Below are positions 1-46,270 of a stretch of 64,000 nucleotides of DNA, piece by piece. The translations under genes were made by a program, and so were the position numbers. Each line of letters starts with the position of its first letter. Position 1 is the first letter of the stretch. The DNA is from Alphaproteobacteria bacterium (lineage in GTDB: Bacteria; Pseudomonadota; Alphaproteobacteria; CBDBCS01): contig CBDBCS010000006.1 of the NCBI GenBank assembly GCA_965203415.1, forward strand, positions 67,942 to 131,941, read 5' to 3'. The notes beneath the pieces were generated by a model, which had not been told where the DNA came from, made no database searches, and saw nothing but the letters and a program-made list of their open reading frames with translations.

Positions 1-1110
1 ATTCACAGCGGCGAGGAGCTCGTTCCAGGTCTCGGGGGCCTGGTCGGCTAGCAGGAGAACTGCTAGACGCTCGGGGGTGAGTATCTCTTGGGCGGCGGTT
101 TTCTCCTCCTCGGGGGTCATGGTCGGAGATGGCTCGACTTGCCGGGGCGTCGGTGGACGTTCTTTTTCTCTTTTTTCCTGTTCCCCAGCTTGCTCCATTT
201 GGTTAGCGTCCGCTACGTACGTTTTTTTTTGCTTCAATTGCTCTTTTCTATGTGTCGGACGTTTACGTCCGCCTAGGAGGACGTTTTTGCTCGTCTTTTG
301 GCCTGCCGAGGTCGTCTCGGAGGCAGGTGCTGATGGGGTCTCCCCCGGGGTTTCCTGTGGGACCCGAGGTGGAAAAAGGGAGGGCTGCCAGAGAGCTTGG
401 GTCTCCTGGGTCAGAGCATGGAGCTCTTGGAAGACACGCTTGGCTTCTTCCAGGCTTGTGAGGCTCTTGGTCGGGGGCAGGGTCTCACAGCGCGCCTGGA
501 GAGCCGACACCTGGTCGGCGAGGGAAGACGGCGTGGTTGTCTCCTGGCCTGCCAGGTCGCCCCGGAGGCGGCGACGAAGAGCCCCTATCCGAGCCTTCAG
601 TTGCTTCAAGACCAGATACGTGCTCTGTTGGGTCTCCCATTGGGTCTTCCAGGTGTCGTAGAGCGCGCTCAGGGGCGCCAGGTTCACCCCATAGGCCTCG
701 AGGATCTTGCCCGTCGTTTTATCTCGGATCCCCCAGCGGCGGTGATTGGCAGAGTCCTGGTGCGTGAGGAAGCCTTTGGCGATGAGGCTTGTCTCTAGAC
801 GGTTGACCTGGCGCGCCGAGACCCCCAGACTGTCCGCGAGGCGCTGGACGGACCACCACACAATGGGGGCCCCGTCGCTCCAGTCTCGCTCCTGGGTCTT
901 GTCGACCAGGAAAAAGAGATAAGTCCGCTCTGCCCGGGTGAGTCCCAATCCCTGGGCTCCCAGATTGAGGAGACGCAGAATTTCGAATCGACGCGTTGGT
1001 CTGGGGTTTTGCGCGAAATTTCGGGCAATTTCCAGCATATTTTGATGCTGGAGGGTGTGAACACGGCCTCCGGAGCAGGCCGTAGCAGGGGATTTGTGCG
1101 AGTTATCCAT
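1..1110 (-). CDS. repC: RepC-family (repABC/plasmid-type) replication initiator, N-terminal 370 codons; ORF runs off the left window edge
   Basis: Absent from the ORF track because no stop lies inside the window. Own translation from ATG (complement of 1108-1110): MDNSHKSPATACSGGRVHTLQHQNMLEIARNFAQNPRPTRRFEILRLLNLGAQGLGLTRAERTYLFFLVDKTQERDWSDGAPIVWWSVQRLADSLGVSARQVNRLETSLIAKGFLTHQDSANHRRWGIRDKTTGKILEAYGVNLAPLSALYD..., open to position 1. This is collinear with the RepC core as I recall it (IVFPSN..L......G....TLRRHL..LV.AGLI.RRDSPNGKRY..RD..GEI..AFGFDLSPL). A GGA-type RBS lies 5-7 nt upstream. Confidence 0.6.
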   Translation of the reverse strand, partial: MDNSHKSPATACSGGRVHTLQHQNMLEIARNFAQNPRPTRRFEILRLLNLGAQGLGLTRAERTYLFFLVDKTQERDWSDGAPIVWWSVQRLADSLGVSARQVNRLETSLIAKGFLTHQDSANHRRWGIRDKTTGKILEAYGVNLAPLSALYDTWKTQWETQQSTYLVLKQLKARIGALRRRLRGDLAGQETTTPSSLADQVSALQARCETLPPTKSLTSLEEAKRVFQELHALTQETQALWQPSLFPPRVPQETPGETPSAPASETTSAGQKTSKNVLLGGRKRPTHRKEQLKQKKTYVADANQMEQAGEQEKREKERPPTPRQVEPSPTMTPEEEKTAAQEILTPERLAVLLLADQAPETWNELLAAVN

Positions 1111-1216
1111 AATTCCTTTCTGGAATTACGGCTTACGAGCTTGCTTGATGTTCTCCGTTGGGTGTCAAGCCGTGGGTTTTGGGACGAAAAAAGTTTCTTT
1201 TTTTCGGTTTATTCCC

Positions 1217-1245
1217 TTGACAGGGCACAGCTCGTATGGTAGACA
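1217..1245 (+). promoter_or_regulatory. sigma70-like promoter (TTGACA-17 bp-TAGACA) driving the short RNA candidate
   Basis: TTGACA at 1217-1222, an exact 17-nt spacer, TAGACA at 1240-1245. It points away from repC into the repC upstream region. Confidence 0.45.
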
Positions 1246-1251
1246 GAAACA

Positions 1252-1308
1252 AGCTAGGTTTTTGCCTTACACAGAGCGACCCGGGATAGCCGTCCTGGGT
1301 CGCTTTTT
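1252..1308 (+). ncRNA. candidate ~57-nt antisense (ctRNA-like) small RNA upstream of and opposite to repC
   Basis: Bounded by the promoter at 1217-1245 and the terminator at 1276-1308. No ORF. Its position and orientation match the counter-transcribed RNA of repABC replicons. The 5' end is only predicted. Confidence 0.4.
1276..1308 (+). terminator. intrinsic terminator
   Basis: 11-bp stem GCGACCCGGGA / TCCTGGGTCGC (one G-U pair), 6-nt loop TAGCCG, followed by TTTTT (1304-1308). Confidence 0.7.
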
Positions 1309-1427
1309 CACTTTTTGGGAAAAAATTATAAAAGATAGACTCTCAGCCGATAATTCTCCTTGAATCCCGCTGAAAGTTCTTGTACAAGGCCGGCTGACTT
1401 AGCCGGGATCCTCCAAGTGGTTCTGTG

Positions 1428-1511
1428 CGGAGAGTGTGGGACTCGAACCCACGCTACCCTATCGGGTAGACGGATTAGCAATCCGCTGCATTACCGCTCT
1501 GCCAACTCTCC
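1428..1511 (-). tRNA. tRNA-Ser (anticodon GCU), class II with long variable arm
   Basis: Reverse complement GGAGAGTTGGCAGAGCGGTAATGCAGCGGATTGCTAATCCGTCTACCCGATAGGGTAGCGTGGGTTCGAGTCCCACACTCTCCG. It has a 7-bp acceptor stem, anticodon loop TTGCTAA, variable-arm hairpin CTACCC-GATA-GGGTAG, T-arm GTGGG-TTCGAGT-CCCAC and discriminator G. CCA is not encoded. Confidence 0.93.
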
Positions 1512-1722
1512 TCGCCGCAGCGCACAGAGGGACACCCTACAACGAAGAGGACTCTGAGGTCAAGAAAAAAACCGAGGTGTTTTTTTCCGCCCATTGTCCG
1601 CCCACTTCTCAGCCCATTTGTCCGCCCGTGGCTTGGAGATGGCCCGGAAGCGTCCCGGGCGTGGCGTCTCCCGGGCTTGTTCCCCCGGGGTTTCCCTGCC
1701 GGAGCCAAAGCTTTGGAAAAGC

Positions 1723-2715: not shown

Positions 2716-2841
2716 TGCCTCCGCCCCCGTGTGTCTTCTAGGCTTCTTTTTGTAAGTTTTTTGGAGCTCTGAGGCGCGCGGGGGCGCGTGTGCCGGGCCT
2801 TTCCCTCTGGTCCCGGTTTTTTTTAGAGCCTCTTGAAGCGC

Positions 2842-5805
2842 ATGTCTATCGAAACGACTCAAGGAATCATTCGCCCGGTCTCCATCGAGGGCGAAATGAA
2901 GCGCTCGTACCTCGATTACGCCATGAGCGTCATCATTGCTCGGGCGCTGCCCGACGTCCGAGACGGGCTCAAGCCGGTGCATCGGCGGATTCTCCATGCG
3001 ATGCACGAGAACAGTTATTTCTCGACGCGGCCCTATCGCAAATCGGCTCGGATTGTCGGGGAGGTGATGGGGAAGTATCACCCACACGGCGACTCGGCCA
3101 TTTACGAGGCCCTCGTGCGCATGGCACAGGTTTTCTCCATGCGAGTCCCCCTCATTGATGGGCAGGGGAATTTTGGTTCTATGGACGGCGATAAGGCAGC
3201 CGCCATGCGGTATACGGAATCGAGACTCCAGAAAATCGCCGAGACGCTCCTGCAGGATATCGGGCACGAGACGGTCTCTTTCAAGCCCAATTACGATGAA
3301 TCCGAGCAGGAACCCGTTGTTTTACCGGCGACTTTCCCGAATTTACTCGCCAATGGGGCGAACGGCATCGCGGTCGGGATGGCGACCAACATTCCGCCGC
3401 ATAATCTAGGCGAGCTCTTGAGTGCCTGTATTCACCTGACACTGAACCCCGAGGCCACGCTCGCCGAGGTGAATCAGATCATCCCAGGGCCCGATTTTCC
3501 CACAGGCGGCATTATTCTAGGCCGGTCTGGCATCCAAGACGCCTATAAAGTGGGGCGCGGGTCTATTGTGGTACGCGCCCGCACGGCGTTCGAAACGGTC
3601 AATCATCGCGACGCCATCATCGTCACAGAGCTCCCTTATCAGGTCAATAAGGCTCGAACCATAGAACGCATCGCCGCGATGGTGCGCGATAAACAAATGG
3701 AGGGCATCACAGATATACGCGACGAGTCCGACCGACACGGCGTTCGGGTGGTGTTTGAACTCAAAAAAGAGGCCAGCTGTGAGGTCGTAGAGGCTCAATT
3801 GTTTCATTCGACCCCGCTCCAGACCAGTTTCAGTGCGAATGTTCTGGCTCTGGACGAAGACGGAAAGCCGACCCATTACGATCTGCTCAAATATCTGCGA
3901 GCCTTTTTGCGTTTTCGCGAAGAGGTCCTTTCAAAGCGGACCTTTTATTTACTCCAGAAAGCTCGGGTTCGGGCGCATGAATTATTGGGGCTCTTGTGTG
4001 CGGTGCGTCATCTGGACCGCGTCATAGAGCTCATTCGTCGTTCGACCTCGCCTCGCGAGGCGCGGGAGGCTCTATGTTCTCAGACGTGGGAGGCGGGTTT
4101 TATGGCGGCTTATATTCGTCTCATTGACGACCCGTCTTTTTCCGAAGAGGCCCCCGCTTATCGCTTATCGGAGGCCCAAGCGGTTGCGATTTTGGATTTG
4201 CGGCTCCATCGGCTCACGGCTTTGGAGCGCGACAAAATCACCCAAGAGTTCGACCAGCTGGCCGAGACCATTCGGCACTATCAAAGGATTCTCGCGGACC
4301 GAGACTTTCGTCTAGAGCTGATGCGCCAGGAGTTTCAAGACCTCTCGGACCGTTTTGCGACGCCTCGGCGGACGGAAATCCAAGAAGCCGGTGCCGAAAC
4401 CGACATAGAGGACCTCATCGAGCCGCAAGATGTCGTGGTGGTGGTCACGCGGAATGCCTATATTAAGCGCGTCCCGCTCTCGGAGTTCCGCTCGCAGCGG
4501 CGGGGCGGTCGAGGGCGCAGCGGCACCACGACGCGTGACGACGATGTTGTCGCGAATCTCTTTGTGGCGAACACGCATAGTCTATTGCTTGTTTTCACCG
4601 ACCGAGGGCAGGTGTATTCTTTGAAAGTCTGGCGTTTGCCTCAGGGGACTCGGGCTTCGCGAGGCCGGGCGCTTGTCAATTGTTTGCCTCTGGAGCCGGG
4701 AGAAACTGTCTGGACGCTTCTACCTGTCCCGGCCGACGCTCTCGAGACCCCTTATTCGATTGTCATGGCGACCAGTTTCGGGTCTGTCCGGCGCAACACG
4801 CTGGATCTTTTCACCAATCTGAGAAAAAATGGCAAGATCGCCATTCAGCTCAAAGAAGAAGAGCGGCTGGTCGGCGTAGAGCTCTGTACGGAGGCGCATG
4901 ATATTCTGTTATGTTCGGCTCAGGGGCGAGCGGTTCGTTTCTCGCTTGCCTCGTTGCGGATTTTTCAGAGCACGCGCTCGGCGGGCGTCGGCGGCATCCG
5001 GCTTGCCTCGGGCGACCGGCTTGTTTCGCTGTGCGTTCTGAACCGGAGTTCTCAAGACACAGAAACGCGACACAGTTATCTGCGATTTGCGGCTCTTTCG
5101 CGACGCCAGGAGGCCTTTGAGGCGGCGACGGCCGAGGCGGCCGAGGCAGAAACCGAGGCAGAAACCGAGGCGGCTGTGTCCTCTGCGGAAGGATTTCCGA
5201 CGCCGGCGCCGGCGGACGACGAGGAGGAATCGGAGGAAGCCCCGGTCTCTTTAGGCGACGGGCCTCTCAAGCCGGAAGAATACGAAGAACTCCAGGCGGG
5301 ACGGGAAAAAGAGCTTTTCCGCCAGCTCGAACAAGAGGAGGAATGGCTTCTCACGATTGCCGAGAACGGTTTTGGGAAGCGGACGTCCTCTTATGAATAC
5401 AGGCACTGTCAGCGTTATGCCAAGGGCGTCAAAGCCATGAACGTAGATGGAACTTCTCTTTTGACGGCGTTTCCGGTCTCGGACCGGGATCATATTATGA
5501 TGATAACGGACGCTGGGCAGACCATACGTGTGCCTGTTGCGGGCATCCGACCGGCGGGGCGCGTGACAAGAGGCGTGCGTCTCTTCCGCACGGCCGAGAA
5601 AGAGCGTCTCATTTCCGTCGCCCGCGTCGAGGCCGCCATGGCCGCCGAAGAAACGGCGGACGCGACCGAGGCGGAAGCAACGGCGGAAACGGCGGCGGAA
5701 ACGGCGGAGACGAACCCAGCAGGCCCAGGCCAGCCGACAGCCCCCGCAGAGGCACACAGAGAAGCCGTCGCCTCCATCGAAGAAACGGAAGAAACGACAC
5801 GGTGA
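2842..5805 (+). CDS. gyrA: DNA gyrase subunit A
   Basis: ORF 2833..5805. Motifs: [57 protein letters not shown] (active-site Tyr region AAMRYTE). ATG at 2842 preferred over TTG at 2833. Acidic/Ala-rich insertion in the CTD and an acidic tail. Confidence 0.97.
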
Positions 5806-7818: not shown

Positions 7819-9018
7819 TTATTGGTCGAAACGGAGCTCTCGGAGCATCGCGATCGCCTGGCGGTGTCTCGCGAAGACCGCCACCAGCGGCGTCGAGTCC
7901 TGAGGATACCGCCCGAAGCCTTTCACCACGTCCGAGGGTTCACTATCGGTGGTCACGGGGTATTCGTGGTTCACCTCTGAAAAAAAGGCTTGGGCCTCTG
8001 GGGCGAGCAGAAAGCGGATCAAAGCCAGAGCCGCCTCGGGCTTAGAGCTCGCCTTGGTCATAGCGATGCCGGATATATTGACGTGGACGGGGTCTGGGAA
8101 GACGAGGCGCACGGCTTCGGCCCAGGCTCGTTGCTCGGCGTCCTCGAGCATGCGGCCGTAATAATAGGAATTCCCGATTGCCACATCGCACTCGCCCTGC
8201 CAGACGGCTTTGACCTGAGCTCGGTCATTGCCCTGAGGCCGCCGGGCGAGGTTCGCTTTCAGGCCTGCCATCCATTGGCGAGCTTTCTCGTCCCCCAGAT
8301 GCTCTATCATGAAGGCAAAAAGCGAGATATTATAGGGGTGCATGCCTTTCCGCATGCAGATTTTACCGCGCCAGGCGGGGTCCGCCAGGGCCTCATAGCT
8401 GGCAAGAGCCCCCTGAGGAACACGCTCCTTCGAGAGAAATAAAACGCGCATCCGCTTCGTCAGAGGAACCCAGTGCCGGTCCGGGTCTCGGAGAAAAGCG
8501 TCCAAACGCTCGAAAAGCGCGTCGGGGGGGATAGAGGCGACCAGATCCCTTTCGACCGCCAGCTCGAGATGGGCATGGCTGGAGGTCAAAATCAGGTCCG
8601 CAGGCGAGCGTTCGCCTTCGATGGCGATGCGCTCTAAGAGACCGGTCTCGCCATAGAGCAGTTTGACCTCCACCCCCGTTTGAGCCGTGAAACTATCCAA
8701 AACGGGCTCAATCAGATGGGGTTGCCGAAAGGAATAGAGGACAAGGCTCTGAGCCAGCCCCAGGCTGTTCCACCCCAGCCCTGCCCCCAGCACCACGGCG
8801 CTCAACAGACTCGGCCGACTCAGCAGGCTCTGCCTGAAGGCCGCCGCCGGCCGAGGTCTAAACTGAAACCCAGAGCCTCCCAAGCCGCGCCAGACCCCAG
8901 AGACCCAGGAGACCCAGACCCTCAGAGCCGAAAAACCCCGAGAGCCAGAGGCTCGAGAGCCGGAGGCTCGAGAGCCAGAGGCCTGACAGCCTGAAATATG
9001 GCGGCACAATCTTCTCAT
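7819..9018 (-). CDS. Fe(3+) ABC transporter periplasmic substrate-binding protein (FbpA/AfuA/FutA family); start uncertain
   Basis: LVLYSFRQPHLIEPVLDSFTAQTGVEVKLLYGETGLLERIAIEGERSPADLILTS... N-terminal region contains a 15-nt x3 repeat (ASGSRASGSRASGSR). No permease or ATPase gene adjacent. Confidence 0.8.
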   Translation of the reverse strand: MRRLCRHISGCQASGSRASGSRASGSRGFSALRVWVSWVSGVWRGLGGSGFQFRPRPAAAFRQSLLSRPSLLSAVVLGAGLGWNSLGLAQSLVLYSFRQPHLIEPVLDSFTAQTGVEVKLLYGETGLLERIAIEGERSPADLILTSSHAHLELAVERDLVASIPPDALFERLDAFLRDPDRHWVPLTKRMRVLFLSKERVPQGALASYEALADPAWRGKICMRKGMHPYNISLFAFMIEHLGDEKARQWMAGLKANLARRPQGNDRAQVKAVWQGECDVAIGNSYYYGRMLEDAEQRAWAEAVRLVFPDPVHVNISGIAMTKASSKPEAALALIRFLLAPEAQAFFSEVNHEYPVTTDSEPSDVVKGFGRYPQDSTPLVAVFARHRQAIAMLRELRFDQ

Positions 9019-9337
9019 TTTCTTTCCCGCCCGGCAATAAAGAACAGGCCCGGGATGCTATCAGGGTCCTACCAGGGTCCTACCAGAGAAAAAAACACGC
9101 GTCAAGCCTCTTTTTCAAAAACCCTACTCTGTTTCCCGAGGCTCTCCCTCTGCGCGCTTTTTTCCGCCGCATAGAGCCCATCGACATCGTTCAGAAACCA
9201 TGTCGGAAAGCCTTGACGTCCTTCTGTGCCGCGTGCTAGGGTCGCCCCGGGGCTGTACTTGAGGCTAGGCTCAGTGCGGACGCAGCTCAGCAGCAAATAG
9301 AACGGGAATAACGCGAGTTTAACGGGAGTAGAACTGG

Positions 9338-10537
9338 ATGTCCCCACGTCTTTTTCAAGAAATTTTGTCGCGTCATTTAGTATCGGACCGGCTCGGTTTT
9401 GTAGTGGACGGGCAGATGCTGGAGGCAGGCCCCCCTGAGACCGGCCATCGCGTCGTCCTCGAAGTCCACCGCAAGCGTCTTTTCGGACGCATTTTACGCC
9501 ACGGGAGTCTGGGACTCGCCGAGGCTTATATGGATGGCGACTATACAATCCAAGAGGGCCATTTATACCTTTTTCTGGAAATTTTGCTGCGCAATCGGCT
9601 TCATCGAGGTCGAAACTTTCCGTGGAGGAGCCACGCCACCGTTCGCTTTTTCATTGCTTGGCAGCGTCTCAGAGAGGCGGCGGCGGGCAAGACGCGAAAC
9701 GTGCGCCATCATTATGACATCGGGAATGACCTGTTCGAGCTTTTTCTAGACAAGTCCCTGACCTATTCCTGTGGCTATGCGCACACCCCCCAAGATGATA
9801 TAGAGACGCTTCAACGCCAAAAAATGGCGCGGATTTGTCGTAAATTACGCCTGAAAGAAGACGAGTCCCTCGTGGATCTTGGCTGCGGCTTTGGCGGTCT
9901 GCTGATCTATGCCGCCAAGACCTACAAAATCACCGGGGTCGGGGCAACGCTGAGTCGCAATCAGGCCGAGAAAGCTCAGCAACGCGTGTTCGAGGCCGGG
10001 TTAGCCGAGAAAATCAAAATTCACGTGGCCGACTATGGGGCCATTGAGGGAAAATTTGATAAATTTGCCAATGTCGGCGTGATGGAGCACATTCCCGATT
10101 CAGAATACAGACATTTTTTCCAACGGGCTCGGGCCTTACTGAAACCCGAGGGGCTTGGCCTTTTGCACACGATTTGCCTCAATCGCAAGCCGCAAGCCGG
10201 GGGCGACCGCGATCTTTTCCTCCAGAAATACATTTTTCCCGGCTATAGTCTGCCGACTCTCTCTGGCATCGCCGGCCATCTAGAGGCCCTCTATATGCCC
10301 ATTCTGGATGTCGAGAACATCGTGCGTCATTATACGCTCACGCTTCTGCGGTGGCACGAGGGCTTCCAGGCGCGCCAGCACGAGTTGGACCCTCAAAAAT
10401 ACGACGACAGGTTCAAGCGCATGTGGAGCTTCTATTTACTAGCCTGCGCAGCCGGCATGAAGCTGGCGGACTTGGCGGTCCTGCAAGTTCTTTTCAACAC
10501 GGATTGTCGGGCCGAGATGCCTCTTCACCGGATCTGA
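9338..10537 (+). CDS. cfa: cyclopropane-fatty-acyl-phospholipid synthase
   Basis: HYDIGNDLFELFLDKSLTYSCGY, SAM motif VDLGCGFGGL, 399 aa. Confidence 0.9.
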   Translation: MSPRLFQEILSRHLVSDRLGFVVDGQMLEAGPPETGHRVVLEVHRKRLFGRILRHGSLGLAEAYMDGDYTIQEGHLYLFLEILLRNRLHRGRNFPWRSHATVRFFIAWQRLREAAAGKTRNVRHHYDIGNDLFELFLDKSLTYSCGYAHTPQDDIETLQRQKMARICRKLRLKEDESLVDLGCGFGGLLIYAAKTYKITGVGATLSRNQAEKAQQRVFEAGLAEKIKIHVADYGAIEGKFDKFANVGVMEHIPDSEYRHFFQRARALLKPEGLGLLHTICLNRKPQAGGDRDLFLQKYIFPGYSLPTLSGIAGHLEALYMPILDVENIVRHYTLTLLRWHEGFQARQHELDPQKYDDRFKRMWSFYLLACAAGMKLADLAVLQVLFNTDCRAEMPLHRI

Positions 10538-10565
10538 GGTCCATGTCAGGATAGGTTTTAGAGCG

Positions 10566-12083
10566 ATGGTCGGTACGTTACGTTTTCCCGAAGAGCCCTT
10601 TGACGTTGTCGTCGTCGGAGCCGGCAATGCCGCCTTATGTGCGGCTTTGGCGGCTCGAGAAGCGGGGGCGGCCTCGGTGGTGGTGCTGGAGCGTGCTCCT
10701 GAAACGCATAACGGTGGCAATAGTCGTTTCACCGCCGGGGCTTTCCGGTGCGTCTATGACGGCGTAGCGGATATTCGCGCGCTCTGTCCCGATTTGAGTG
10801 CAGGGCAACTCGCCACAACGGACTTCGGGGCCTATCGAGAGGCGGATTTTTTCCACGATATGGCCCGCATCACGCAGTTTCGGACGGACCCGGCCTTGAC
10901 CGAGACGCTGGTTACGCAGTCTCGCCCGACGCTGCGCTGGATGCGAGCCCTCGGGATTCGCTTCATGCCGATTTATGGTCGGCAGGCCTTCCGAACCGAG
11001 GACGGACGCTTCCAATTCTGGGGCGGCCTCACCATAGAGGCCTGGGGCGGCGGCCCCGGGCTGGTCGACCGAGAATTGGAACTCGCCCGGGACGCCGGCA
11101 TCCAGATCGTCTTTGAGGCCCGCGCCCGGGAGCTTCTCTTTGATGGCGAGGGCGTCTCGGGGGTACGGCTGCGGGACGGCACGCTGTGCCGGGGGCGGAC
11201 GGTTATTCTAGCCTGCGGCGGCTTCGAGGCCAATAGTGCTTGGCGCGCCCGGTATCTAGGCCCGGCTTGGGATCTCGCCAAGGTCCGGGGGACCTATTGT
11301 AATACGGGCGACGGTCTAGCGATGGCTCTGGCGATCGGAGCGGCCCCCTATGGCCATTGGTCTGGCTGTCACGCGGTGGGGTGGGACTATAACGCCCCAG
11401 AATTCGGCGACCTCGCCATCGGCGACGGCTTTCAGAAGCACTCGTATCCCTGGGGCATTATGGTCAATGCCGAGGGACGGCGCTTCGTCGATGAAGGGGC
11501 CGACTTCCGAAACTACACGTATGCGAAATACGGGCGTCAAATTCTGGCGCAACCCGGTCAATTCGCCTGGCAAATTTTTGACCAGCGCGTCCGCGGTCTT
11601 TTGCGCGACGAGTACCGCACGCCCAAGGTCTCGAAAGTCACGGCCGACAGCCTGCCAGAGCTCGCTTCTAAACTAGAGGGCGTTCAAGCCGAGCCCTTTT
11701 TACAGGAACTAGAGGCCTATAATCGGGCAGTCGACACGGGCCGTCCCTTCAAACCGACCGTTTTGGACGGCAGAGCGACCCACGGTCTGAAAGTCCCGAA
11801 GTCTAATTGGGCCAATCCTCTTGACACGCCGCCGTTCGAGGCTTATCACGTGGGGTGCGGCATCACCTTCACTTTTGGCGGTTTGCGCATCAACCCAGAG
11901 ACCAGCCAGGTGATAGACAGCGACCTAGAGCCTATCTCGGGCCTCTATGCTGCCGGAGAAATCGTCGGCGGTCTCTTTTATATGAATTATCCGGGCGGGA
12001 CTGGTTTGATGTCGGGGTCTGTTTTCGGCCGGCAGGCCGGCATTCACGCCGCGAAAGAAGCCTCCAGACAGGCGAGAAAATAG
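10566..12083 (+). CDS. FAD-dependent oxidoreductase, TcuA / fumarate-reductase-flavoprotein-like
   Basis: FDVVVVGAGNAALCAALAAREAGA...GGNSRFTAGAFR N-terminus and C-terminal GLYAAGEIVGG FAD motif. Confidence 0.75.
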   Translation: MVGTLRFPEEPFDVVVVGAGNAALCAALAAREAGAASVVVLERAPETHNGGNSRFTAGAFRCVYDGVADIRALCPDLSAGQLATTDFGAYREADFFHDMARITQFRTDPALTETLVTQSRPTLRWMRALGIRFMPIYGRQAFRTEDGRFQFWGGLTIEAWGGGPGLVDRELELARDAGIQIVFEARARELLFDGEGVSGVRLRDGTLCRGRTVILACGGFEANSAWRARYLGPAWDLAKVRGTYCNTGDGLAMALAIGAAPYGHWSGCHAVGWDYNAPEFGDLAIGDGFQKHSYPWGIMVNAEGRRFVDEGADFRNYTYAKYGRQILAQPGQFAWQIFDQRVRGLLRDEYRTPKVSKVTADSLPELASKLEGVQAEPFLQELEAYNRAVDTGRPFKPTVLDGRATHGLKVPKSNWANPLDTPPFEAYHVGCGITFTFGGLRINPETSQVIDSDLEPISGLYAAGEIVGGLFYMNYPGGTGLMSGSVFGRQAGIHAAKEASRQARK

Positions 12084-13210
12084 TCCAGTTCCGCCGCGTT
12101 ATTCCGCGGCCCCAGGCTCACGCGGAGCATCCGGCGCGCGGCCGTGGCGTCATAGCCGCACGCTCGTAGCGTCGGAGAACCCCGAAGAGCCCCCGAAGCA
12201 CAGGCCGTCCCGCTAGAGACGGCGATGCCTGCCAGATCTAGCCGCACCAGAAGAGCCTGCACATCCGGAACGGCTCGAGCGTCCTGGAACAGCAGGCACG
12301 TACTATTGCTCAGACGCGGGACATGCTGGCCGATGACTTGAATGCCGGGCGGTAATTTTTTTTCCAGCTCGTCGCGGAGCTCCTGCGTTCCACGCCAGTC
12401 ATACGGGTTTTGAGTCGCAAGCCCCAGACTATGGATTGCCAGAACGTTTTCGGTACCGGGTCTGTAAGCGTTCTCCTGCCCGCCGCCGTAAAGCAGAGGC
12501 TTTATATGGAAGGCGCCTGTCCGCCAGACCAGGCCTCCGACGCCCGGCAGAGCCCCGATTTTATGGCCCGAGAAACTCAGTAAATCCCACGGGATATCGG
12601 CGAGGGGCTCATCCGCTTTGCCGCCGAAAGCCTGCGTCGCATCACAATGCAGCCAGACCGGAAAAGAGGCTTTGTCCAGCGTGGCCCGAATCTCGGAAAG
12701 CGGCTGGAGAACGCCTGTCTCGCTATTGGCAAGCTGGATCGAGACAAGACACGGCGTCGAATCCGAGGCCAGAAGAACCGCAAGCTCTGAAAGAAGCACG
12801 CGGCCATCTGAATCCGTAGGCACAGAAACACAGGCGAGACCTCGCGCCGCGCCATAGACTCGGGCGGCCTCCAGAACAGAGGGATGCTCTGTCGCGGCAA
12901 CCAGAAAACGCAAGCCGGCAGCACAGGCGGCGGAACCGCCGCTCGAGCCCGACGTCTCGAAGCCTGAGAATAGCAAGTTGTGCGCCTCGGTTGCGCTGCT
13001 TGTCCAGACGAGCTCATCTGCCTGCAGGTCCTGTTTGAGCCACGCTCGCACCTGTTCGAGACGCGCGCGCTGTTTCTGGCCCGGCCGGTGCACCGAAGAG
13101 CCATTCCCTAAAAAAGAGTCCGCCTCCAGCGTATGGAGCAATGCGACGACCTCCTCCGTCAGCGGAGCCGTCGCGTTCCAGTCAAAATACACAAGCGGAG
13201 AACTCAACAT
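12044..13210 (-). CDS. cysteine desulfurase (class V aminotransferase, NifS/IscS-like)
   Basis: ORF 12044..13315. Start moved to ATG at 13210 (MLSSPLVYFDWNATAP...), the start conserved in all repeat copies. PLP-Lys motif SFSGHKIGALPGVGGL and catalytic Cys loop SSGTACASG. Confidence 0.88.
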   Translation of the reverse strand: MLSSPLVYFDWNATAPLTEEVVALLHTLEADSFLGNGSSVHRPGQKQRARLEQVRAWLKQDLQADELVWTSSATEAHNLLFSGFETSGSSGGSAACAAGLRFLVAATEHPSVLEAARVYGAARGLACVSVPTDSDGRVLLSELAVLLASDSTPCLVSIQLANSETGVLQPLSEIRATLDKASFPVWLHCDATQAFGGKADEPLADIPWDLLSFSGHKIGALPGVGGLVWRTGAFHIKPLLYGGGQENAYRPGTENVLAIHSLGLATQNPYDWRGTQELRDELEKKLPPGIQVIGQHVPRLSNSTCLLFQDARAVPDVQALLVRLDLAGIAVSSGTACASGALRGSPTLRACGYDATAARRMLRVSLGPRNNAAELDYFLACLEASFAA

Positions 13211-13286
13211 CCGTCTTCCATGAAAACCCCGGATAACAAACTGGGGCGCATGCCGTGAGGACCCGCGCCTCGGGCAGTTTCTCGAG

Positions 13287-13315
13287 CAGTTAGGCCGGAG
13301 GAAACTCGGCGTCAA
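13287..13315 (-). promoter_or_regulatory. putative desulfurase promoter TTGACG-17-TAACTG (minus strand)
   Basis: Reverse complement agaTTGACGccgagtttcctccggccTAACTGctc. Sits back-to-back with the plus-strand promoter at 13344. Confidence 0.35.
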
Positions 13316-30885: not shown

Positions 30886-31082
30886 GGGGTTTGTTCCTCT
30901 GTGCGTATCCAGACTGAAGCCCCGGAAAGCCGGCGCGAGAGTCTGGAGGGCGGATGAAACGAGGCGAGGTTCGGAATTGTGGGCCTCCTCGGTTGGTGGG
31001 GTGCGGCCGGTGTGTGACCTTGCGTCGTGCCGGTTGGTGCTTCAAATTATAGATAAGATTTTTGAGAGGAAGGATTTCAAAA

Positions 31083-32150
31083 ATGATGACACGTTTTTTT
31101 TCCGCAGTTTCTGCTTTCGGGAGGTCTGGAGTCAAGTCTACAGGCTTTTCCATTTTGTTTGCGGCCCTGGTTTTGTCGGGGCTGGTGGTGCGTCTGGGAC
31201 ATGCTCAGGACGTCACGGTTGGCTATCAGGGAATCCTCAACCCCTGGAAGGTCGCCATCGAAGACGGCAAGTTCGAGAAGATGACAGGGAAATCCATTAA
31301 ATGGGTTAAGTTCGCCTCTGGGGCGGATGTTATCACGGCCATGGCTGCCGGGGAGCTCCACATTGCCGTGGCCGGCTCCAGCCCCATCGCTGCCGGCGTG
31401 AGTCAAGGCGTCCCCATGGTGCTCTTCTGGATTCTTGAGGACATCAATGACGCCGAAGCTCTGGTCGTCCATCATGACTCCGGCATTCAAGCCCCGCAGG
31501 ATCTCAAAGGCAAACGCATTGGGGTTCCTTTTGTTTCCACAACGCATTTTCACGCGCTTTTTGCGCTGGAACAATTCGGCCTGAGTGCCGGCACGGACCC
31601 CGAAGAGGTCTCGCTGCTCAATCTCGAACCTCCCGAGATCAGGGCGGCCTGGGAGCGCGGGGATCTGGACGGGGCTTTCATTTGGGACCCTGTTCTAGGA
31701 AGCATCAAAGAGAACGGGAATGTTCTCATCACCTCGGGCACTTTGTCCAGCTGGGGCAAGGCCACTTTCGACGGCATGGTCGTTGATAAGCCGTTTGCCG
31801 ATGAGAATCCGGACTTTATGGCAGATTTCGTCCGGACGATTGCGGAAGAAGACGCCTATTATCGCGAGAATCCGAAAGAGTACGGTCCGACAAGCGACCG
31901 AGCCAAGAAAATTGCGAAATGGGGTGGGGGTTCCGCTGACCAGGTCGCAGGTGTTCTGGCTCTTTATTCCTTCCCCACGCTTAGTCAGCAGGCATCGTCG
32001 ACTTGGCTCGGTGGTGGTGCTGAAGGGGGCGCGGCCCGTGCTCTACGCTTCACCGCTGAGTTTTTGAGAGGCGAAGGCCGGATTTCGTCGCTTTTGGACG
32101 ACTACGGTACCGCTGTCACGGATGCTTTTGTGATAGCGGCGCAGAAGTAA
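31083..32150 (+). CDS. tauA: taurine ABC transporter substrate-binding protein
   Basis: Collinear with E. coli TauA as I recall it: GKRIGVPFVSTTHFHALFALEQFG, NLEPPEIRAAWERGDLDGAFIWDP, C-terminal DYGTAVTDAFV. ATG at 31083 has an RBS and gives a signal peptide. Confidence 0.9.
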   Translation: MMTRFFSAVSAFGRSGVKSTGFSILFAALVLSGLVVRLGHAQDVTVGYQGILNPWKVAIEDGKFEKMTGKSIKWVKFASGADVITAMAAGELHIAVAGSSPIAAGVSQGVPMVLFWILEDINDAEALVVHHDSGIQAPQDLKGKRIGVPFVSTTHFHALFALEQFGLSAGTDPEEVSLLNLEPPEIRAAWERGDLDGAFIWDPVLGSIKENGNVLITSGTLSSWGKATFDGMVVDKPFADENPDFMADFVRTIAEEDAYYRENPKEYGPTSDRAKKIAKWGGGSADQVAGVLALYSFPTLSQQASSTWLGGGAEGGAARALRFTAEFLRGEGRISSLLDDYGTAVTDAFVIAAQK

Positions 32151-32525
32151 CACACCCGTAGCACACCGGGGTTCGCGGACGGATGGGGATTATGGGGATG
32201 GTGGTATGGGGGGATGCACTTGCAGAGTGTGTGCCCTCCCTCTGGGCTTCCCCTGTCGTCCTCTCCGTCCGCGGACTTGAGCGGTCCTTCTTTGCTTTGT
32301 CTTTGAGGAGGCGGGCTGTGTGGTGGCGGCTCCGTTCCTTCTTGTGTCCTCGTGCGTCTTTTTTTCCTTGTTCCCTTTTTTAGTCTTTCCTCTCTCGTTT
32401 GCCGCTAAGGTTCCCTTCCCGGTGGTTCCGGGCAAACGAGAAGCGACGGTTGCCCCCGCGTGCCGGCCGTGTGGACGGCACAACGGGGGACTCGGGGAGC
32501 CTGGAAACACGGTGCTGTTGAACTG

Positions 32526-33332
32526 ATGTCGCATCTGGAAGTCAGAGACGTTTCTGTACGCTACCCGACTCGGGACGGCGGGACGATAAAGGCTCTGGAA
32601 CGAGTCGATCTAGATCTTCGTGAGGGCGATTTTGTTGTCGCTCTAGGAGCTTCCGGCTGCGGAAAAACGACTTTACTGAATTTACTCGGCGGTTTCATAC
32701 GACCGAGTGAGGGGGTCGTTAAGCTCAACGACCGCTCTATCGATGGGCCCGGCGCCGATCGAGGGGTTGTTTTTCAAAAGCACGCCCTATTGCCTTGGTT
32801 GAATGTTCGCGAAAATGTTTGCTTTGGTCTCAAATTACGAGGCCTCTCCAAAAAAGAACGTTATGAAAAGGCTGAACAAGCTCTGAAATTGGTTGAGCTC
32901 AAGGGGTTCGAGGATCATTTTATTTACGAATTATCCGGCGGCATGCAGCAGCGAGTTGGCCTTGCCCGAGCTCTCACATCAGACCCCGAAATTTTATTGA
33001 TGGACGAACCATTGGGGGCCTTGGATGCTCTGACGCGTGAGAATATGCAGGAACTCATCCTCAAGGTTTGGTCCGAGACCCATAAGATGATTTTTTTCAT
33101 CACGCACTCTGTGGAGGAGGCTCTGTTTATGGCGACGCGTTTGGTGGTGATGTCGCCGCGTCCCGGGCGTGTGAGCTATCAATGGGATTTAGACTTCTCC
33201 CGGCGCTTCCTTGAAAACAAGGAATCTGCGCGCGTCATTAAATCCAGTTCCCGTTTTGTCCGGAAACGCGAGGAGGTCTTGAAGATCATTTATGGCGATG
33301 AAAAAGAAGCCGCCAATAGAGCTATCCCATGA
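32526..33332 (+). CDS. tauB: taurine ABC transporter ATP-binding protein
   Basis: Walker A GASGCGKTTLLNL, signature LSGGMQQRVGLARAL, Walker B LLMDEP. Start MSHLEVRDVSVRY at 32526 preferred over 32460. Confidence 0.92.
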   Translation: MSHLEVRDVSVRYPTRDGGTIKALERVDLDLREGDFVVALGASGCGKTTLLNLLGGFIRPSEGVVKLNDRSIDGPGADRGVVFQKHALLPWLNVRENVCFGLKLRGLSKKERYEKAEQALKLVELKGFEDHFIYELSGGMQQRVGLARALTSDPEILLMDEPLGALDALTRENMQELILKVWSETHKMIFFITHSVEEALFMATRLVVMSPRPGRVSYQWDLDFSRRFLENKESARVIKSSSRFVRKREEVLKIIYGDEKEAANRAIP

Positions 33333-35089: not shown

Positions 35090-37834
35090 TTACGGGTTTG
35101 ATTTTTGAGCCTCGACGGCTTGTTCGATCGTCTGTCGGATGCGTTCTAAAGCCACAGAGAGGCCTTCCACGGCGGGGCCACCGCCTTGAGCGAACGTGTC
35201 CTGGCCGCCGCCCGAACCTCTAATCGCGGAAATGCCGACTTTCAGCAGAGCCTTCGCCGAGAACCTATCTGTCAGGTCTGCCGACACAGCGACCATTAAA
35301 ATCGCTTTATTTTCAAAACGAGTCGCAAAGACAAAGACGGCTTTGCGTTTTTTGGTGCGGAAATCGTCAAAGAAGGCTCGGAGGTCGCCGGGGGCGGTCT
35401 CGACCTGGCATGTGTGGTAGGTAATCGGGCCGAATTGTCTGCCTTTCACAGCCCGGAGCAGCACGTTTTGCTTCTGATTCATCGTCAGAGCCTGAACTTG
35501 CGTATAGTAATCGCGGCGTTCCGCTAAGAGCTGTTGCAAACGCGCCACCAAATCCTTGGGCGCACACCGAAGAAGAGCCGTCGCGTCCTCTAGGATGGCC
35601 TCCTTTTTTTGCGTATAGGCCACGGCTTCGGCGCCCGTGACGGCCGTGAGTCGACGAATGCCAGCCGCAATAGAGGTCTCCTCTATGAGTCGAAAGGCCC
35701 CGATTTCGCCCGTCGCCTGCACGTGCGTGCCGCCGCAAAGCTCCACGGATTCCACGGGAGCGGCGGCGGAGGCGGCCTCTTCCGGGGGCACCGGTAGATC
35801 CGGGGGCGCCATACGCACGACCCGCACCTGGGCGTCATAGGTCTCGCCGAGCAGCGCCATCGCCCCGTACGCCAGAGCCGCCTCGCGCGCCATGAGCCGC
35901 GTTGTCACGGGCCAATTGGCGGCGATGGCGGCGTTGACCCGTGCCTCCAGAGCCCGCAACTCGGAAGAGCTTATTTTCTGAGGGTGAGAGATATCAAAAC
36001 GAAAACGCCCCGCCTCCACGAGCGACCCTTTTTGCGTGATATGGGGCCCCAATTCTGCGTGTAGAGCCGCATTGAGTAAGTGGGTCGCCGAGTGACTGGC
36101 TCGGAGTTTCTTGCGCCGAATCGCGTCTATCGTCAAGGTTGCCCGAGCCTGCGTCCGCAAAATCCCTGTCTCGAGGACGCCCTGGTGGGCAAAGAGGTCC
36201 TTCTGCCGCCGGCGGGTATTGGTCACTCGGAAGCGAGCCTCGGGGGTTATGATAAAGCCGTGGTCGCCCTCCTGCCCCCCGGCTTCGGCGTAAAAAGGCG
36301 TTTGATTCGTCAGAATTTCCACGTTCTCGACGGTTTTTCCCCCGGCATTGCCGGGATTTCCGGGATTTTCGGGCCCTTCCAGGGTCTCGCAAGGCTGCTG
36401 GTCCTGAAGCAGAGCCAAAATCAAACCTTCGGCCTGTTCGGCCTCATAGCCGAGAAACACCGTTGCGCCATATTTCTGCCGGAGGTCGAACCAGACTGGA
36501 GCCTCGGCCGAAGAGGCGATTTCGCCGCTGCCGGTCCAGTGTTCGCGCGATTTTTCGCGTTGGTTCTTCATGGCGGCCTCGAAGCCCGCTTCGTCCAAAC
36601 GGAGATGGCGTTCTCGCAGAATATCGGCGGTCAGGTCCAGCGGAAAGCCATAGGTATCGTAAAGCGTGAAAGCGACCTCTCCGGACAAAACGCCCTGAGA
36701 CGGAAGACCTTGGATCGCGCGGTCTAGAAGCCCCAGGCCTCGGTCGAGCGTTTTAAGGAAGCGTTGTTCCTCGTTTTTGATGGTTTCCTCGACCAGGGCG
36801 CGCGCCCGGACGAGCTCGGTGAAGTGTGCGCCCATCAGCTCGCCGAGACCCCGCACGAGACGCCATAGAAAGGGTTCTCGGATTCCCAAAAGATGCACGT
36901 GCCGCAGGGCTCTGCGCAAAATACGACGCAGCACATAGCCGCGTCCTTCTTTATCGGGCAGGACGCCTTCCGCAATGAGAAAACAGATCGTCCTGAGATG
37001 GTCTGCGATAATCCGGTAGCTGGGTAAGGTGGCGGGCGACGGCGTCTGCCCCGCCAAGGCTGCGATTTGGTCGATGAGGTGCTGGAATAAATCGATCTCA
37101 AAATTATTGTGTTTGCCTTGCAGAACGGCACAGAGTCGCTCCAGGCCCATGCCGGTGTCGATGGAGAGCTGCGAAAGAGGCTCCATCGTGCCCGTTTCCC
37201 CTTTCTGGAATTGCATAAAAACGAGATTCCAGATTTCGATAAAGCGATCGCCGTCTTGTTCTGGCGAACCGGGGGGGCCGCCTGCTACGGTTGGGCCGTG
37301 GTCATAATAGAGCTCTGTGCAAGGGCCGCAGGGGCCGACATCGCCCATTTGCCAGAAATTATCACTTGTCCGGATCCGAATGATTCGGTCGTCGCCGAAT
37401 CCTGCGCAGCGGTGCCAGGCCTCGGCGGCCTGGGTGTCGTTGTAATAGACGGTGGCCAAGAGGCGCTCTTGGGGGAGCCCCAGTTCTTTTGTGACAAAAT
37501 GCCACGCCAGCTCGACCGCGTTTTCCTTGGAGAGGGCGCCAAAGGCAAAATTGCCCAGCATTTCGAAAAAAGTGTGGTGACGAGCCGTATAACCGACATT
37601 GTCTAGGTCATTGTGTTTCCCGCCGGCTCGAACACATTTCTGAGAACTCACGGCCTTTTGGTAAGGGCGGCGTTCCAATCCCAGCAGGGCGTTTTTGAAC
37701 TGCACCATGCCCGAATTCACAAAGAGAAGACTCGGGTCGTTGCGCGGAACGAGCGGCGAAGAAGAGACCTCTTGGTGGCCGTTGGCCACAAAATAGTCTA
37801 GAAAGGCTCTACGAATGTCTACTAGGTTTGTCAT
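35090..37834 (-). CDS. alaS: alanine--tRNA ligase
   Basis: 914 aa. FLDYFVANGHQEVSSSPLVPRNDPSLLFVNSGMVQFK, HHTFFEMLGNF, editing-domain HSATHLL...CGGTHV. Confidence 0.97.
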   Translation of the reverse strand: MTNLVDIRRAFLDYFVANGHQEVSSSPLVPRNDPSLLFVNSGMVQFKNALLGLERRPYQKAVSSQKCVRAGGKHNDLDNVGYTARHHTFFEMLGNFAFGALSKENAVELAWHFVTKELGLPQERLLATVYYNDTQAAEAWHRCAGFGDDRIIRIRTSDNFWQMGDVGPCGPCTELYYDHGPTVAGGPPGSPEQDGDRFIEIWNLVFMQFQKGETGTMEPLSQLSIDTGMGLERLCAVLQGKHNNFEIDLFQHLIDQIAALAGQTPSPATLPSYRIIADHLRTICFLIAEGVLPDKEGRGYVLRRILRRALRHVHLLGIREPFLWRLVRGLGELMGAHFTELVRARALVEETIKNEEQRFLKTLDRGLGLLDRAIQGLPSQGVLSGEVAFTLYDTYGFPLDLTADILRERHLRLDEAGFEAAMKNQREKSREHWTGSGEIASSAEAPVWFDLRQKYGATVFLGYEAEQAEGLILALLQDQQPCETLEGPENPGNPGNAGGKTVENVEILTNQTPFYAEAGGQEGDHGFIITPEARFRVTNTRRRQKDLFAHQGVLETGILRTQARATLTIDAIRRKKLRASHSATHLLNAALHAELGPHITQKGSLVEAGRFRFDISHPQKISSSELRALEARVNAAIAANWPVTTRLMAREAALAYGAMALLGETYDAQVRVVRMAPPDLPVPPEEAASAAAPVESVELCGGTHVQATGEIGAFRLIEETSIAAGIRRLTAVTGAEAVAYTQKKEAILEDATALLRCAPKDLVARLQQLLAERRDYYTQVQALTMNQKQNVLLRAVKGRQFGPITYHTCQVETAPGDLRAFFDDFRTKKRKAVFVFATRFENKAILMVAVSADLTDRFSAKALLKVGISAIRGSGGGQDTFAQGGGPAVEGLSVALERIRQTIEQAVEAQKSNP

Positions 37835-45121: not shown

Positions 45122-46270
45122 TCACCCTTGAGGCCCCCCGTCTGGCAGCAGTTCTGCGGCGGCGAATTGAGCGACCAGCCTCTGGTCGGTGAGTTTCGTA
45201 TAGTGCTGTGTCGTTCGCAGGCTCGAATGGCCCAGCAATTCTTGGATAGTCCGTAGGTCGCCGCCGCGCTCCAGGAGATGCGTCGCGAAACTATGGCGCA
45301 GCGCGTGGGGCGTCAGCGTCTCGGGCATCCCGAGCTGACGGCGCAGCGTCCGCAGAGCCGCTTGAGCCACGCCTGCCTGAAGTCGTGCCCCCTTTTTGCC
45401 CAAAAAGAGCGGCCCTCGCGGCCGACAGGGATACGGACAAAGGTCTCGATAGGCGTAAATGAGCGCGTTCAAAACAGGCAAAACAGGGACAGAACGCGTT
45501 TTTTGGCCCTTCCCATGAACACGGAGCAACGCCGGAGAAGCCGGCAATTCCGGTGATTCCGGGGGCCCTGGTTGGGCCTCCCGTGCCTCCATCCAGGGGC
45601 CGCAATTCAGCCCCAGGGCCTCGCCGATGCGGAGTCCCGTCCCATAGAGAAAATAAAACAACGCATAATCCCGATATCGGAGCCATGGTTCCGTCTGTTC
45701 CGTCGCCTGCGGCGGCCCGTTTTCGAGCTGTTCTCGCATTCTGCCGAAAACCTGGTCGAGCTGACGCACCGTCGCCGGGCGCGGGGCTAAAGCCGCCTTC
45801 CGAGCAGTCCGAACCGCGTCGAGCGTCCCAGAAGTCAGAGCTCCATGTTTTTCGCAAAAACGCCAGAAACTCCGCAGAGCCGACATAGAGCGCGCAATAG
45901 AACGCGGATTATGTCTTTTATGCCACTTAAATTCGGCCAAACCGGCTCGAAAGTCCGAAACGCGGAGAGCCTGAAGAGACGCAAAAGAGAGGCACATCGC
46001 CCCGGTACTTTCGGGGCCCTCGGGGCTGGTGTGCCGTTTCTGTCGGCCGCCACCGCCACGGCCCCCGCCACCGGCGGCAGGCGGACCGGACGCAAGCAAG
46101 CTCAGGAAAAAACCCAGCCAGTTGAGAATGTCATTCGCATAAGCCCTCTGCGTGTGGAGGCTGAAGCCGTGCACCCAAGCGAGTTCGCTCAACCAGGTGC
46201 GCAGCATGGCTCGGAGGGCGGGCTCCAGCGGGAGCTCTGCGATTCTGCGCTCAAGAACGGTCGTAGGCAC
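45122..46270 (-). CDS. xerC: tyrosine recombinase XerC/XerD type (xerC by DUF484 synteny); GTG start at 46270 proposed
   Basis: LHTQRAYANDI N-terminal SAM-like domain. Catalytic LTPHALRHSFATHLLERGGDLRTIQELLGHSSLRTTQHYT. The upstream part of ORF 45122..46591 overlaps the DUF484 gene and looks non-coding. Confidence 0.85.
   Translation of the reverse strand: MPTTVLERRIAELPLEPALRAMLRTWLSELAWVHGFSLHTQRAYANDILNWLGFFLSLLASGPPAAGGGGRGGGGRQKRHTSPEGPESTGAMCLSFASLQALRVSDFRAGLAEFKWHKRHNPRSIARSMSALRSFWRFCEKHGALTSGTLDAVRTARKAALAPRPATVRQLDQVFGRMREQLENGPPQATEQTEPWLRYRDYALFYFLYGTGLRIGEALGLNCGPWMEAREAQPGPPESPELPASPALLRVHGKGQKTRSVPVLPVLNALIYAYRDLCPYPCRPRGPLFLGKKGARLQAGVAQAALRTLRRQLGMPETLTPHALRHSFATHLLERGGDLRTIQELLGHSSLRTTQHYTKLTDQRLVAQFAAAELLPDGGPQG

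Follow-up and report, generated by a model that had tools for sequence, protein, structure and literature searches.

The left edge of a 64,000-nucleotide stretch of alphaproteobacterial DNA (contig CBDBCS010000006.1 of assembly GCA_965203415.1; the whole stretch is hereafter called the window) is best read as the tRNA-proximal end of an integrated, decayed plasmid-like element, a reading to which we give a probability of roughly 0.7. The element would span window positions 1 to approximately 1380 and run on leftward past the window edge, and it would include a gene of the repC family of replication initiators and, on the opposite strand of the repC leader, the gene of a small antisense RNA. 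RepC-type replication is familiar from the free plasmids and chromids of Alphaproteobacteria; here, the initiator family and its putative antisense-RNA control appear in a chromosomally integrating element that lies beside a tRNA gene and, in its relatives, is linked to a large serine recombinase. An earlier note, made from the letters of this DNA, had proposed three options, namely an integrated plasmid or integrative and conjugative element (ICE) at a tRNA-Ser gene, a RepC module domesticated in the chromosome, and a chromid. An integrated plasmid-like element fits best of the three, given two tRNA-Ser sites and a sharp break in homology among its copies, and, rather than a functional second origin, the element most likely represents a relic.

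Table 1. Features of the window, from the repC gene rightward through the tRNA-Ser gene, and the two essential genes confirmed
Feature	Position	Strand	Details
repC-family gene	1110..1	minus	first 370 of 384 codons in the window; frame crosses the window edge
A+T-rich dip inside repC	151..300		GC 43-46% vs 60-70% around it; encodes the inter-domain linker
Inverted repeat CCGUAAUUCC-AGAAA-GGAAUUAUGG	1102..1136	minus	spans ribosome-binding site and repC start codon
Hairpin GCTTGA...TCAAGC	1143..1170		repC leader
A-run/T-run palindrome CGAAAAAAG-TTT-CTTTTTTTCG	1185..1206		beside the -35 box of the small-RNA promoter
Candidate small-RNA promoter TTGACA-17-TAGACA	1217..1245	plus	-35 at 1217-1222, -10 at 1240-1245
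Predicted counter-oriented small RNA, ~55-60 nt	1252..1312	plus	~20-nt 5' tail and terminator hairpin; both ends predicted
Intrinsic terminator	1273..1306	plus	15-bp stem, 4-nt loop, tail TTTTTCACTTTTT
Candidate repC promoter TTATCG-17-TATAAT	1353-1325	minus	upstream of the small-RNA gene; read from the sequence
Perfect palindrome CTTGTACAAG	1379..1388		at the homology break between the window and locus L002; candidate element junction
tRNA-Ser(GCU)	1427..1511	minus	co-oriented with repC, 3' end toward the element; ARAGORN; Rfam tRNA model 61.8 bits
gyrA	2833-5805		confirmed by profile search
alaS	35090-37834		confirmed by profile search

The repC gene and its copies beside tRNA genes

The 370-codon frame that the earlier note had placed at 1110 to 1 on the minus strand is present in translation, and its proposed RepC winged-helix core was borne out by profile search: Pfam RP-C (PF03428) matched residues 20-183 of the product (E 8e-26; 91.3 bits, with a cut-off of 24.4), the N-terminal winged-helix domain, which is followed in the window by a linker. 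The NCBIfam RepABC_RepC model gave 88.6 bits, under its equivalog cut-off of 150, and the window RepC reads as a distant family member and no equivalog of the RepC of repABC replicons. A HMMER scan of 1.84 billion representatives returned 916 relatives of this RepC, of which those outside its own clade are full-length RepC-like proteins with 27-39% identity and none above about 39%. Plasmid RepC genes are approximately 30% identical to it, in the N-terminal half only; the best plasmid matches of RepC and of the recombinase linked to it in related loci are both alphaproteobacterial, and no similarity to plasmids was found at the DNA level.

The frame runs off the window, but the gene ends only 14 codons beyond. 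A database product that is 100% identical to the window frame (P0001, from a contig of 1,787,677 bases) ends in '...AEDLSERT' ahead of the C-terminal RepC domain; its last residue is 384, and the RP-C_C domain is absent. A 91% identical relative (P0005, 520 aa) runs on as 'SERTWQLALEQ...' into that domain, to which its match is weak (31.4 bits against a cut-off of 32.6, E 2.4e-7), and can be aligned end to end with RepC-like proteins. The premature stop is known from the database gene product, the DNA of the stop codon lying outside the window, and the visible 1110 nt differ from the intact copy in locus L004 by in-frame length differences only, with no frameshift. Replication of p42d is abolished when its RepC is deprived of the last 14 codons (PMC3155836), so that, by analogy, a product missing about 135 C-terminal residues is unlikely to act as an initiator. 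With a predicted product that breaks off at residue 384 and has no C-terminal domain, the window copy is probably inert as a replicon, and its repC probably represents a pseudogene that marks the end of a decayed island.

The close relatives (loci L001-L004 and L022) all derive from one European Nucleotide Archive metagenome, ERZ25068803. L001 is the orthologous locus, with the same tRNA-Ser(GCU), the same outer-membrane-protein-like (OMP-like) paralogues upstream, and 90% identity to window 1-1630. In L002 and L003, the same leader and repC lie next to a tRNA-Ser(CGA) in an unrelated upstream context. The window and L002 are 54% identical over the 50-nt tRNA trailer and then 99% identical over the next 72 nt, the break falling at approximately window position 1378, about 47 nt past the tRNA, at the palindrome CTTGTACAAG. 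The tRNA of L003 is chimeric: its 5' part is 94% like the L002 CGA tRNA, and its 3' trailer is 90% like the window GCU trailer. The module is therefore present at different chromosomal sites with a sharp boundary of homology, as expected of a site-specifically integrated mobile element, and the tRNA-Ser(GCU) of the window stands beside repC with its 3' end facing the rep module, as the earlier note had described.

Most of these copies are damaged. The repC of L001 bears a 10-nt and a 1-nt insertion, a 200-nt deletion affects repC in L002, where most of the recombinase gene is also gone, L003 is a rearranged copy, and the RepC of L022 is down to a 99-aa fragment; these are real lesions and not sequencing noise. 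The compact locus L004 is intact, with a 520-aa RepC, a convergent gene of a 545-aa large serine recombinase starting from the repC end, and then a methyltransferase-like gene. L003 and L022 reach as far as a ParA-like gene.

Two distant relatives also lie beside tRNA genes: L005 (RepC 34% identical) has tRNA-Ala(GGC), about 300 nt, RepC, two genes, and a convergent large serine recombinase, and L006 (39%) has tRNA-Thr(CGT), about 255 nt, and RepC. There are thus four tRNA-adjacent sites (Ser-GCU, Ser-CGA, Ala, and Thr), in all of which the tRNA is co-oriented with repC. By a rough estimate, only 1-2% of genes have a tRNA in the same orientation within 350 nt upstream, so four independent co-oriented sites are far more than chance would give. 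Two further loci are arranged otherwise. L017 (30%) is a chromosomal island without a tRNA, in which RepC, ParA, ParB, and a large serine recombinase are flanked by a lexA-side gene and nrd, and L019 (31%) has RepC with a convergent small resolvase. A single-protein query found no close relatives in IMG/VR and JGI metagenomes, and none of the ten distant RepC loci that an alignment query returned from JGI metagenomes has a tRNA. The plasmid controls, a Ruegeria repABC plasmid and a Roseibium plasmid with repC alone (solo-repC), have no annotated recombinase beside repC; tRNA genes were not scanned for there. Neither the window nor its relatives have repA or repB upstream of repC, in line with the earlier note, which had seen no repB at this place.

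Several minor observations concern these sites. In L017, the island (8001-12750) is set between tryptophan/molybdopterin/lexA genes and ribonucleotide reductase, and its order repC-parA-parB is unlike the usual repA-repB-repC. Just 5' of the tRNA-Ser gene of the window are direct repeats CCATT(T)GTCCGCCC (1581-1625), and L001 has three GGGCGGACAAT-like repeats at the equivalent place; the repeats of the window might serve the tRNA promoter as upstream elements or form a site for a regulator. Transfer-messenger RNA (tmRNA) genes are classic insertion sites. In L005, the tRNA-Ala(GGC) at 2324-2399 scored 43 bits with the Rfam tmRNA model (cut-off 47), and 2372-2530 scored 30 bits with the permuted-tmRNA model, which is probably mere likeness to tRNA-Ala.

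The small antisense RNA gene in the repC leader

The small-RNA gene is the best-supported functional part of the module and appears structurally intact. Both promoter sites named in the earlier note are present, but its description of them as near-consensus was overstated: the -35 is perfect and lies 51 nt upstream of the terminator stem, and the -10 matches TATAAT at 3/6 positions and lacks the final T, such that a consensus scan made no call. The -35 is invariant in 4/4 copies, in which the -10 reads TAGACA, TAGACA, TAGGCA, and TAAGCA. The intrinsic terminator, which that note had called strong, was the top match of a terminator scan of the region, and the small RNA folds at -30.1 kcal/mol with a z-score of -5.2.

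Placement and predicted size also agree with the note's comparison to the counter-transcribed RNAs (ctRNAs) of RepC replicons. The terminator lies 163-196 nt before repC in the window, 179-206 nt before it in the Ruegeria repABC plasmid, and 136-165 nt before it in the Roseibium solo-repC plasmid, and ctRNAs of 55-59 nt are known from both repABC and solo-repC replicons (PMC10194956). In its anatomy (opposite strand, position upstream, promoter-like site, terminator, and size), the gene conforms to the ctRNA pattern of the repABC/repC family. Comparable arrangements recur in the two distant loci beside tRNA genes: in L005, a long hairpin and U9 come after an antisense TTGACA-18-TATGTT, with a predicted RNA of about 75 nt, and L006 has an antisense TTGACT-16-TAGGAA (identified by eye) followed by ACCGCC-UUCG-GGCGGU, UUUUGUCGUUU, and a second terminator, with a predicted RNA of about 47 nt.

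Comparison among the copies favours the antisense strand as the one that is folded. On this strand, the helix is continuous in 4/4 copies, with 14-15 bp including G-U pairs and energies of -20 to -26 kcal/mol, and on the repC-sense strand the same substitutions produce A-C mismatches and energies of -10 to -20 kcal/mol. Between the window and L002, the RNA body (1246-1305) differs at 12/60 positions and the flanking leader at 5/204 (Fisher p 1.8e-5), and the differences within the RNA are located in the loop and the 5' tail, the stem being preserved. Rapid divergence of the loop and 5' tail around a preserved stem is what would be expected of an antisense determinant of specificity and incompatibility.

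We infer that the small RNA is transcribed and overlaps the repC mRNA. The candidate repC promoter (Table 1) has a weak -35 that the consensus scan missed, and its -10 is TGTAAT in L001 and degraded in L003; if it is used, the repC leader would overlap the entire small RNA. Read-through from the co-oriented tRNA is a candidate alternative source of the sense transcript. A minus-strand TTGACA at 1167-1162 was rejected as a repC promoter, having no acceptable -10 after it and lying with its hexamer within a hairpin arm. Long-range leader pairing between the target region of the RNA and the sequence preceding the ribosome-binding site was likewise dropped, as the variant tail of L002 would break the pairing.

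Within the leader, the inverted repeat at the repC start codon forms a 10-bp hairpin in the predicted fold and is kept in related copies, the GCTTGA/TCAAGC hairpin bears a 13-nt insertion in L003, and L005 and L006 have, next to their antisense -35, an equivalent of the A-run/T-run palindrome. These leader hairpins, the A-run/T-run palindrome, and the A+T-rich dip of repC may have roles in the module. The oriV of p42d, its origin of replication, is an A+T-rich region within repC (PMC3155836), and by analogy, the dip is a candidate internal oriV.

It is possible, although we consider it unlikely, that the hairpin is instead a one-way terminator or insulator against transcription leaving the element toward the tRNA or that the RNA targets something besides repC. 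The weak -10 in a promoter that the scan did not call would suit such a role, as would a sense promoter upstream of the hairpin that is unproven and an RNA that has no Rfam match. The plus strand here, however, has no other feature requiring a terminator, and a perfect -35 is kept without variation in all copies; the promoter-terminator pair recurs in loci whose RepC is only 34-39% identical, and the geometry agrees with that of the repABC and solo-repC plasmid controls. A plain terminator, moreover, would not be expected to diverge quickly in its loop and 5' tail while keeping its stem.

The linked recombinase, the proposed mechanism, and known systems

Downstream of repC, L001, L002, L003, L004, and L022 have a large serine recombinase or what remains of one, and intact ones are present in L005 and L017. 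The earlier note had suggested looking for an integrase, and a recombinase is indeed linked to the module in the relatives, but it is of the large serine type and not a tyrosine integrase. That of L004 has the full architecture of a large serine integrase, with a match to a family of phage integrases (E 9e-72). The L005 recombinase is 33% identical to it over the full length (E 1e-89), and with RepC at 34%, the two proteins of L005 have diverged from the family of the window in step. An ICE finds no support in these loci, as no conjugation genes were seen in the approximately 10 kb of any relative, and no relaxase or origin of transfer (oriT) was seen here. A prophage was also rejected; apart from the recombinase and the methyltransferase-like protein, nothing matches a phage family, and no structural genes were seen.

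The genes accompanying the recombinase vary. A large pentapeptide-repeat protein is encoded directly after repC in most copies, and tetratricopeptide/pentatricopeptide-repeat-like (TPR/PPR-like) proteins are encoded further along (repeat-protein genes at L001 5510-7636, L003 9204-11027, L022 2661-4280, and L003 13882-16406); the compact L004 has neither. The repeat proteins are variable cargo placed between repC and the recombinase. In L005, an SLFN/AlbA_2-domain protein is encoded between RepC and the recombinase and, just outside the tRNA, there is an HsdM methylase (4538-5707 and 12-1658); these may be defence-type cargo.

Another enzyme, such as a tyrosine integrase at the far end, may have inserted the element, with the serine recombinase being an enzyme of multimer resolution or inversion, or unrelated cargo; we hold this to be about as improbable as an insulating hairpin. 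Tyrosine integrases typically insert at the 3' ends of tRNAs, exchange within the tRNA is suggested by the chimeric tRNA of L003, L019 has a small resolvase by its RepC, and none of the contigs shows a far end. Against this, there is no tyrosine integrase in the approximately 10 kb of L001, L003, or L022, and a recombinase with the full large-serine-integrase architecture has diverged in step with RepC. The break also falls some 47 nt past the tRNA, at a palindrome and without long direct repeats, which suits serine recombination; serine-recombinase elements have very short flanking repeats (PMC5704250).

On the reading of an integrated, decayed plasmid-like element, the intact form of the family, as in L004 and its relatives, would encode a divergent 520-aa RepC, a convergent large serine recombinase directly downstream, a DNA-methyltransferase-like protein, and a ParA-like ATPase, with repeat-protein cargo in some copies, and would sit some tens of nucleotides past the 3' ends of tRNA genes, co-oriented with them. 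By analogy with known systems, the serine recombinase would insert and excise the element, and after excision, RepC would fire an origin in the A+T-rich stretch of its own gene. The small RNA, about 55-60 nt long and transcribed opposite to the repC leader between its own promoter and terminator (Table 1), would pair with the leader and thereby hold down RepC synthesis and copy number, and it would determine the mutual incompatibility of related elements. The ctRNA of p42d pairs with the leader and thereby brings about the formation of an intrinsic terminator (PMC10194956, PMC3155836).

A number of points weigh against this reading. With regard to the small RNA, three variable stem positions favour the antisense strand, which would arise by chance in about 1 in 8 cases, and the close copies are too alike for genuine covariation; the -10 box is poor, and the sense promoter through which the RNA would become genuinely counter-transcribed is a candidate only. 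The Rfam ctRNA model did not match the window at E up to 10, a negative that is uninformative because the Rfam library reported no ctRNA in the Ruegeria repABC locus or the Roseibium solo-repC locus either. With regard to the element, the truncation of RepC rests on a database product rather than on readable DNA, and the independence of the copies is uncertain given that the close relatives come from one metagenome. The recombinase and the cargo are known from relatives and not for the window copy. The direct repeat of the tRNA 3' end, which the earlier note had anticipated for the tRNA-Ser, was not found within approximately 10 kb in any relative locus, nor was the far end of the element found in the relatives, every contig stopping inside the element.

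Among known systems, the module most resembles the solo-repC replicons of rhizobial plasmids of the pRmeGR4a type, in which a ctRNA lies upstream of repC (Izquierdo et al. 2005, as summarized in PMC10194956). Both have a RepC initiator without repA or repB in front of it and, upstream, a counter-oriented small RNA composed of a 5' tail and a terminator hairpin (55-60 nt predicted here against 55-59 nt). Unlike those replicons, the module of the window has a RepC that is about 30% identical, in the N-terminal half only and below the NCBIfam equivalog cut-off, and a small RNA without detectable sequence or Rfam similarity to theirs; it is chromosomally integrated by a tRNA, linked in its relatives to a serine recombinase, and truncated in this copy. 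With repABC replicons (p42d, pTi, and chromids), it shares the initiator family, an A+T-rich stretch in repC, and a ctRNA-like gene placed as in the repB-repC intergenic region. It differs from them in having neither repA nor repB, the position of repB being held by tRNA-Ser (the genes upstream of repC are tRNA-Ser, an OMP-like gene, and gyrA), and in a host replicon that is independent of repC.

Integrative and mobilizable elements, ICEs, and the integrative elements of actinomycetes are likewise integrated elements that combine a theta-type initiator of their own with a partition ATPase and a site-specific recombinase; the initiators reviewed for them are Rep_3, replisome organizers with DnaC, a RepA/RepC pair, and Rep_Trans, and their serine-recombinase members usually insert within genes and not beside tRNAs (PMC5704250). 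Their initiators are thus of other kinds than the RP-C protein of the window. The RepA/RepC pair is presumably of the IncQ type and unrelated to RP-C.

If the family is real and active, it would join two textbook classes, repC plasmids and integrative elements, and would offer serine integrases with apparent insertion sites in tRNA-flanking trailers together with a natural set of sister copies with diverging antisense-RNA specificity. A more specific version, which we put forward as doubtful, is that the window holds a relic of an undescribed 'integrative plasmid' family, defined by RepC, antisense RNA, and a tRNA-trailer serine recombinase, whose retained RNA blocks re-infection. If this is true of elements at Ser, Ala, and Thr trailers, a fast-evolving antisense-RNA gene would outlive its dead initiator as a chromosomal incompatibility determinant, and elements would escape the block by altering the loop and 5' tail of the RNA.

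It is improbable, to a greater degree than any of the alternatives above, that the truncated RepC is kept as a DNA-binding regulator or that the relic persists because incoming relatives are blocked by its small RNA: the 370 visible codons are in frame and lesion-free and the small-RNA gene is intact and diverging quickly, but nothing points to selection on the truncated protein, and the other copies are plainly decaying. Weakest of all, and highly improbable, is that the RepC module is a working origin, as in a chromid or a secondary origin, or a domesticated chromosomal replication module, the two remaining options of the earlier note; the essential genes gyrA and alaS in the window, a cumulative GC skew that climbs over all 64 kb and implies replication away from the left edge, where repC lies, and the A+T-rich dip would suit it, but RepC is without the C-terminal domain (of which p42d cannot spare 14 codons), the sister copies are destroyed by mutation, a module at several loci by different tRNAs speaks for a mobile element rather than a fixed origin, the contig with gyrA and alaS is 1.79 Mb long with no repAB adjoining repC in the window (parS was not looked for), and the skew places the origin only somewhere leftward, neither supporting nor excluding one at repC. 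For annotation, the message is that repC is a probable pseudogene and does not itself indicate a second origin.

Neighbouring genes in the window

The earlier note had listed gyrA, alaS, hisS, prfA, and dapB as essential genes of the contig. The first two stood (Table 1), but hisS, prfA, and dapB were not found among the ten open reading frames (ORFs) scanned. The ORF at 12044-13315, considered as hisS, proved to encode a cysteine desulfurase, and that at 31062-32150, considered as prfA, a taurine ATP-binding cassette (ABC) transporter binding protein.

Between the tRNA-Ser gene and gyrA, an OMP beta-barrel-like gene (1863-2592) is split over two frames (1863-2135 and 2053-2592) at an 11-G run (2042-2052), and a second run, of G8, lies at approximately 1944-1951; the split gene is either a pseudogene or a phase-variable gene. 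L001 has four tandem OMP-like paralogues in this context (202-2849), with one weak OMP_b-brl match. The predicted GyrA is 990 aa long against a profile of about 800 positions and has Ala/Glu/Thr-rich acidic insertions and an acidic tail in its C-terminal part. Further along, on the minus strand (45122-46591), is the gene of a 489-aa XerC-like tyrosine recombinase, in which the XerC model matches residues 204-478 with 220 bits (equivalog cut-off 335) and leaves an unexplained N-terminal extension of about 200 aa. The binding protein and ATPase of the taurine ABC transporter are encoded at 31062-33332 and, together with the repeat proteins of the related loci, give hints of a host-associated, possibly marine lifestyle.

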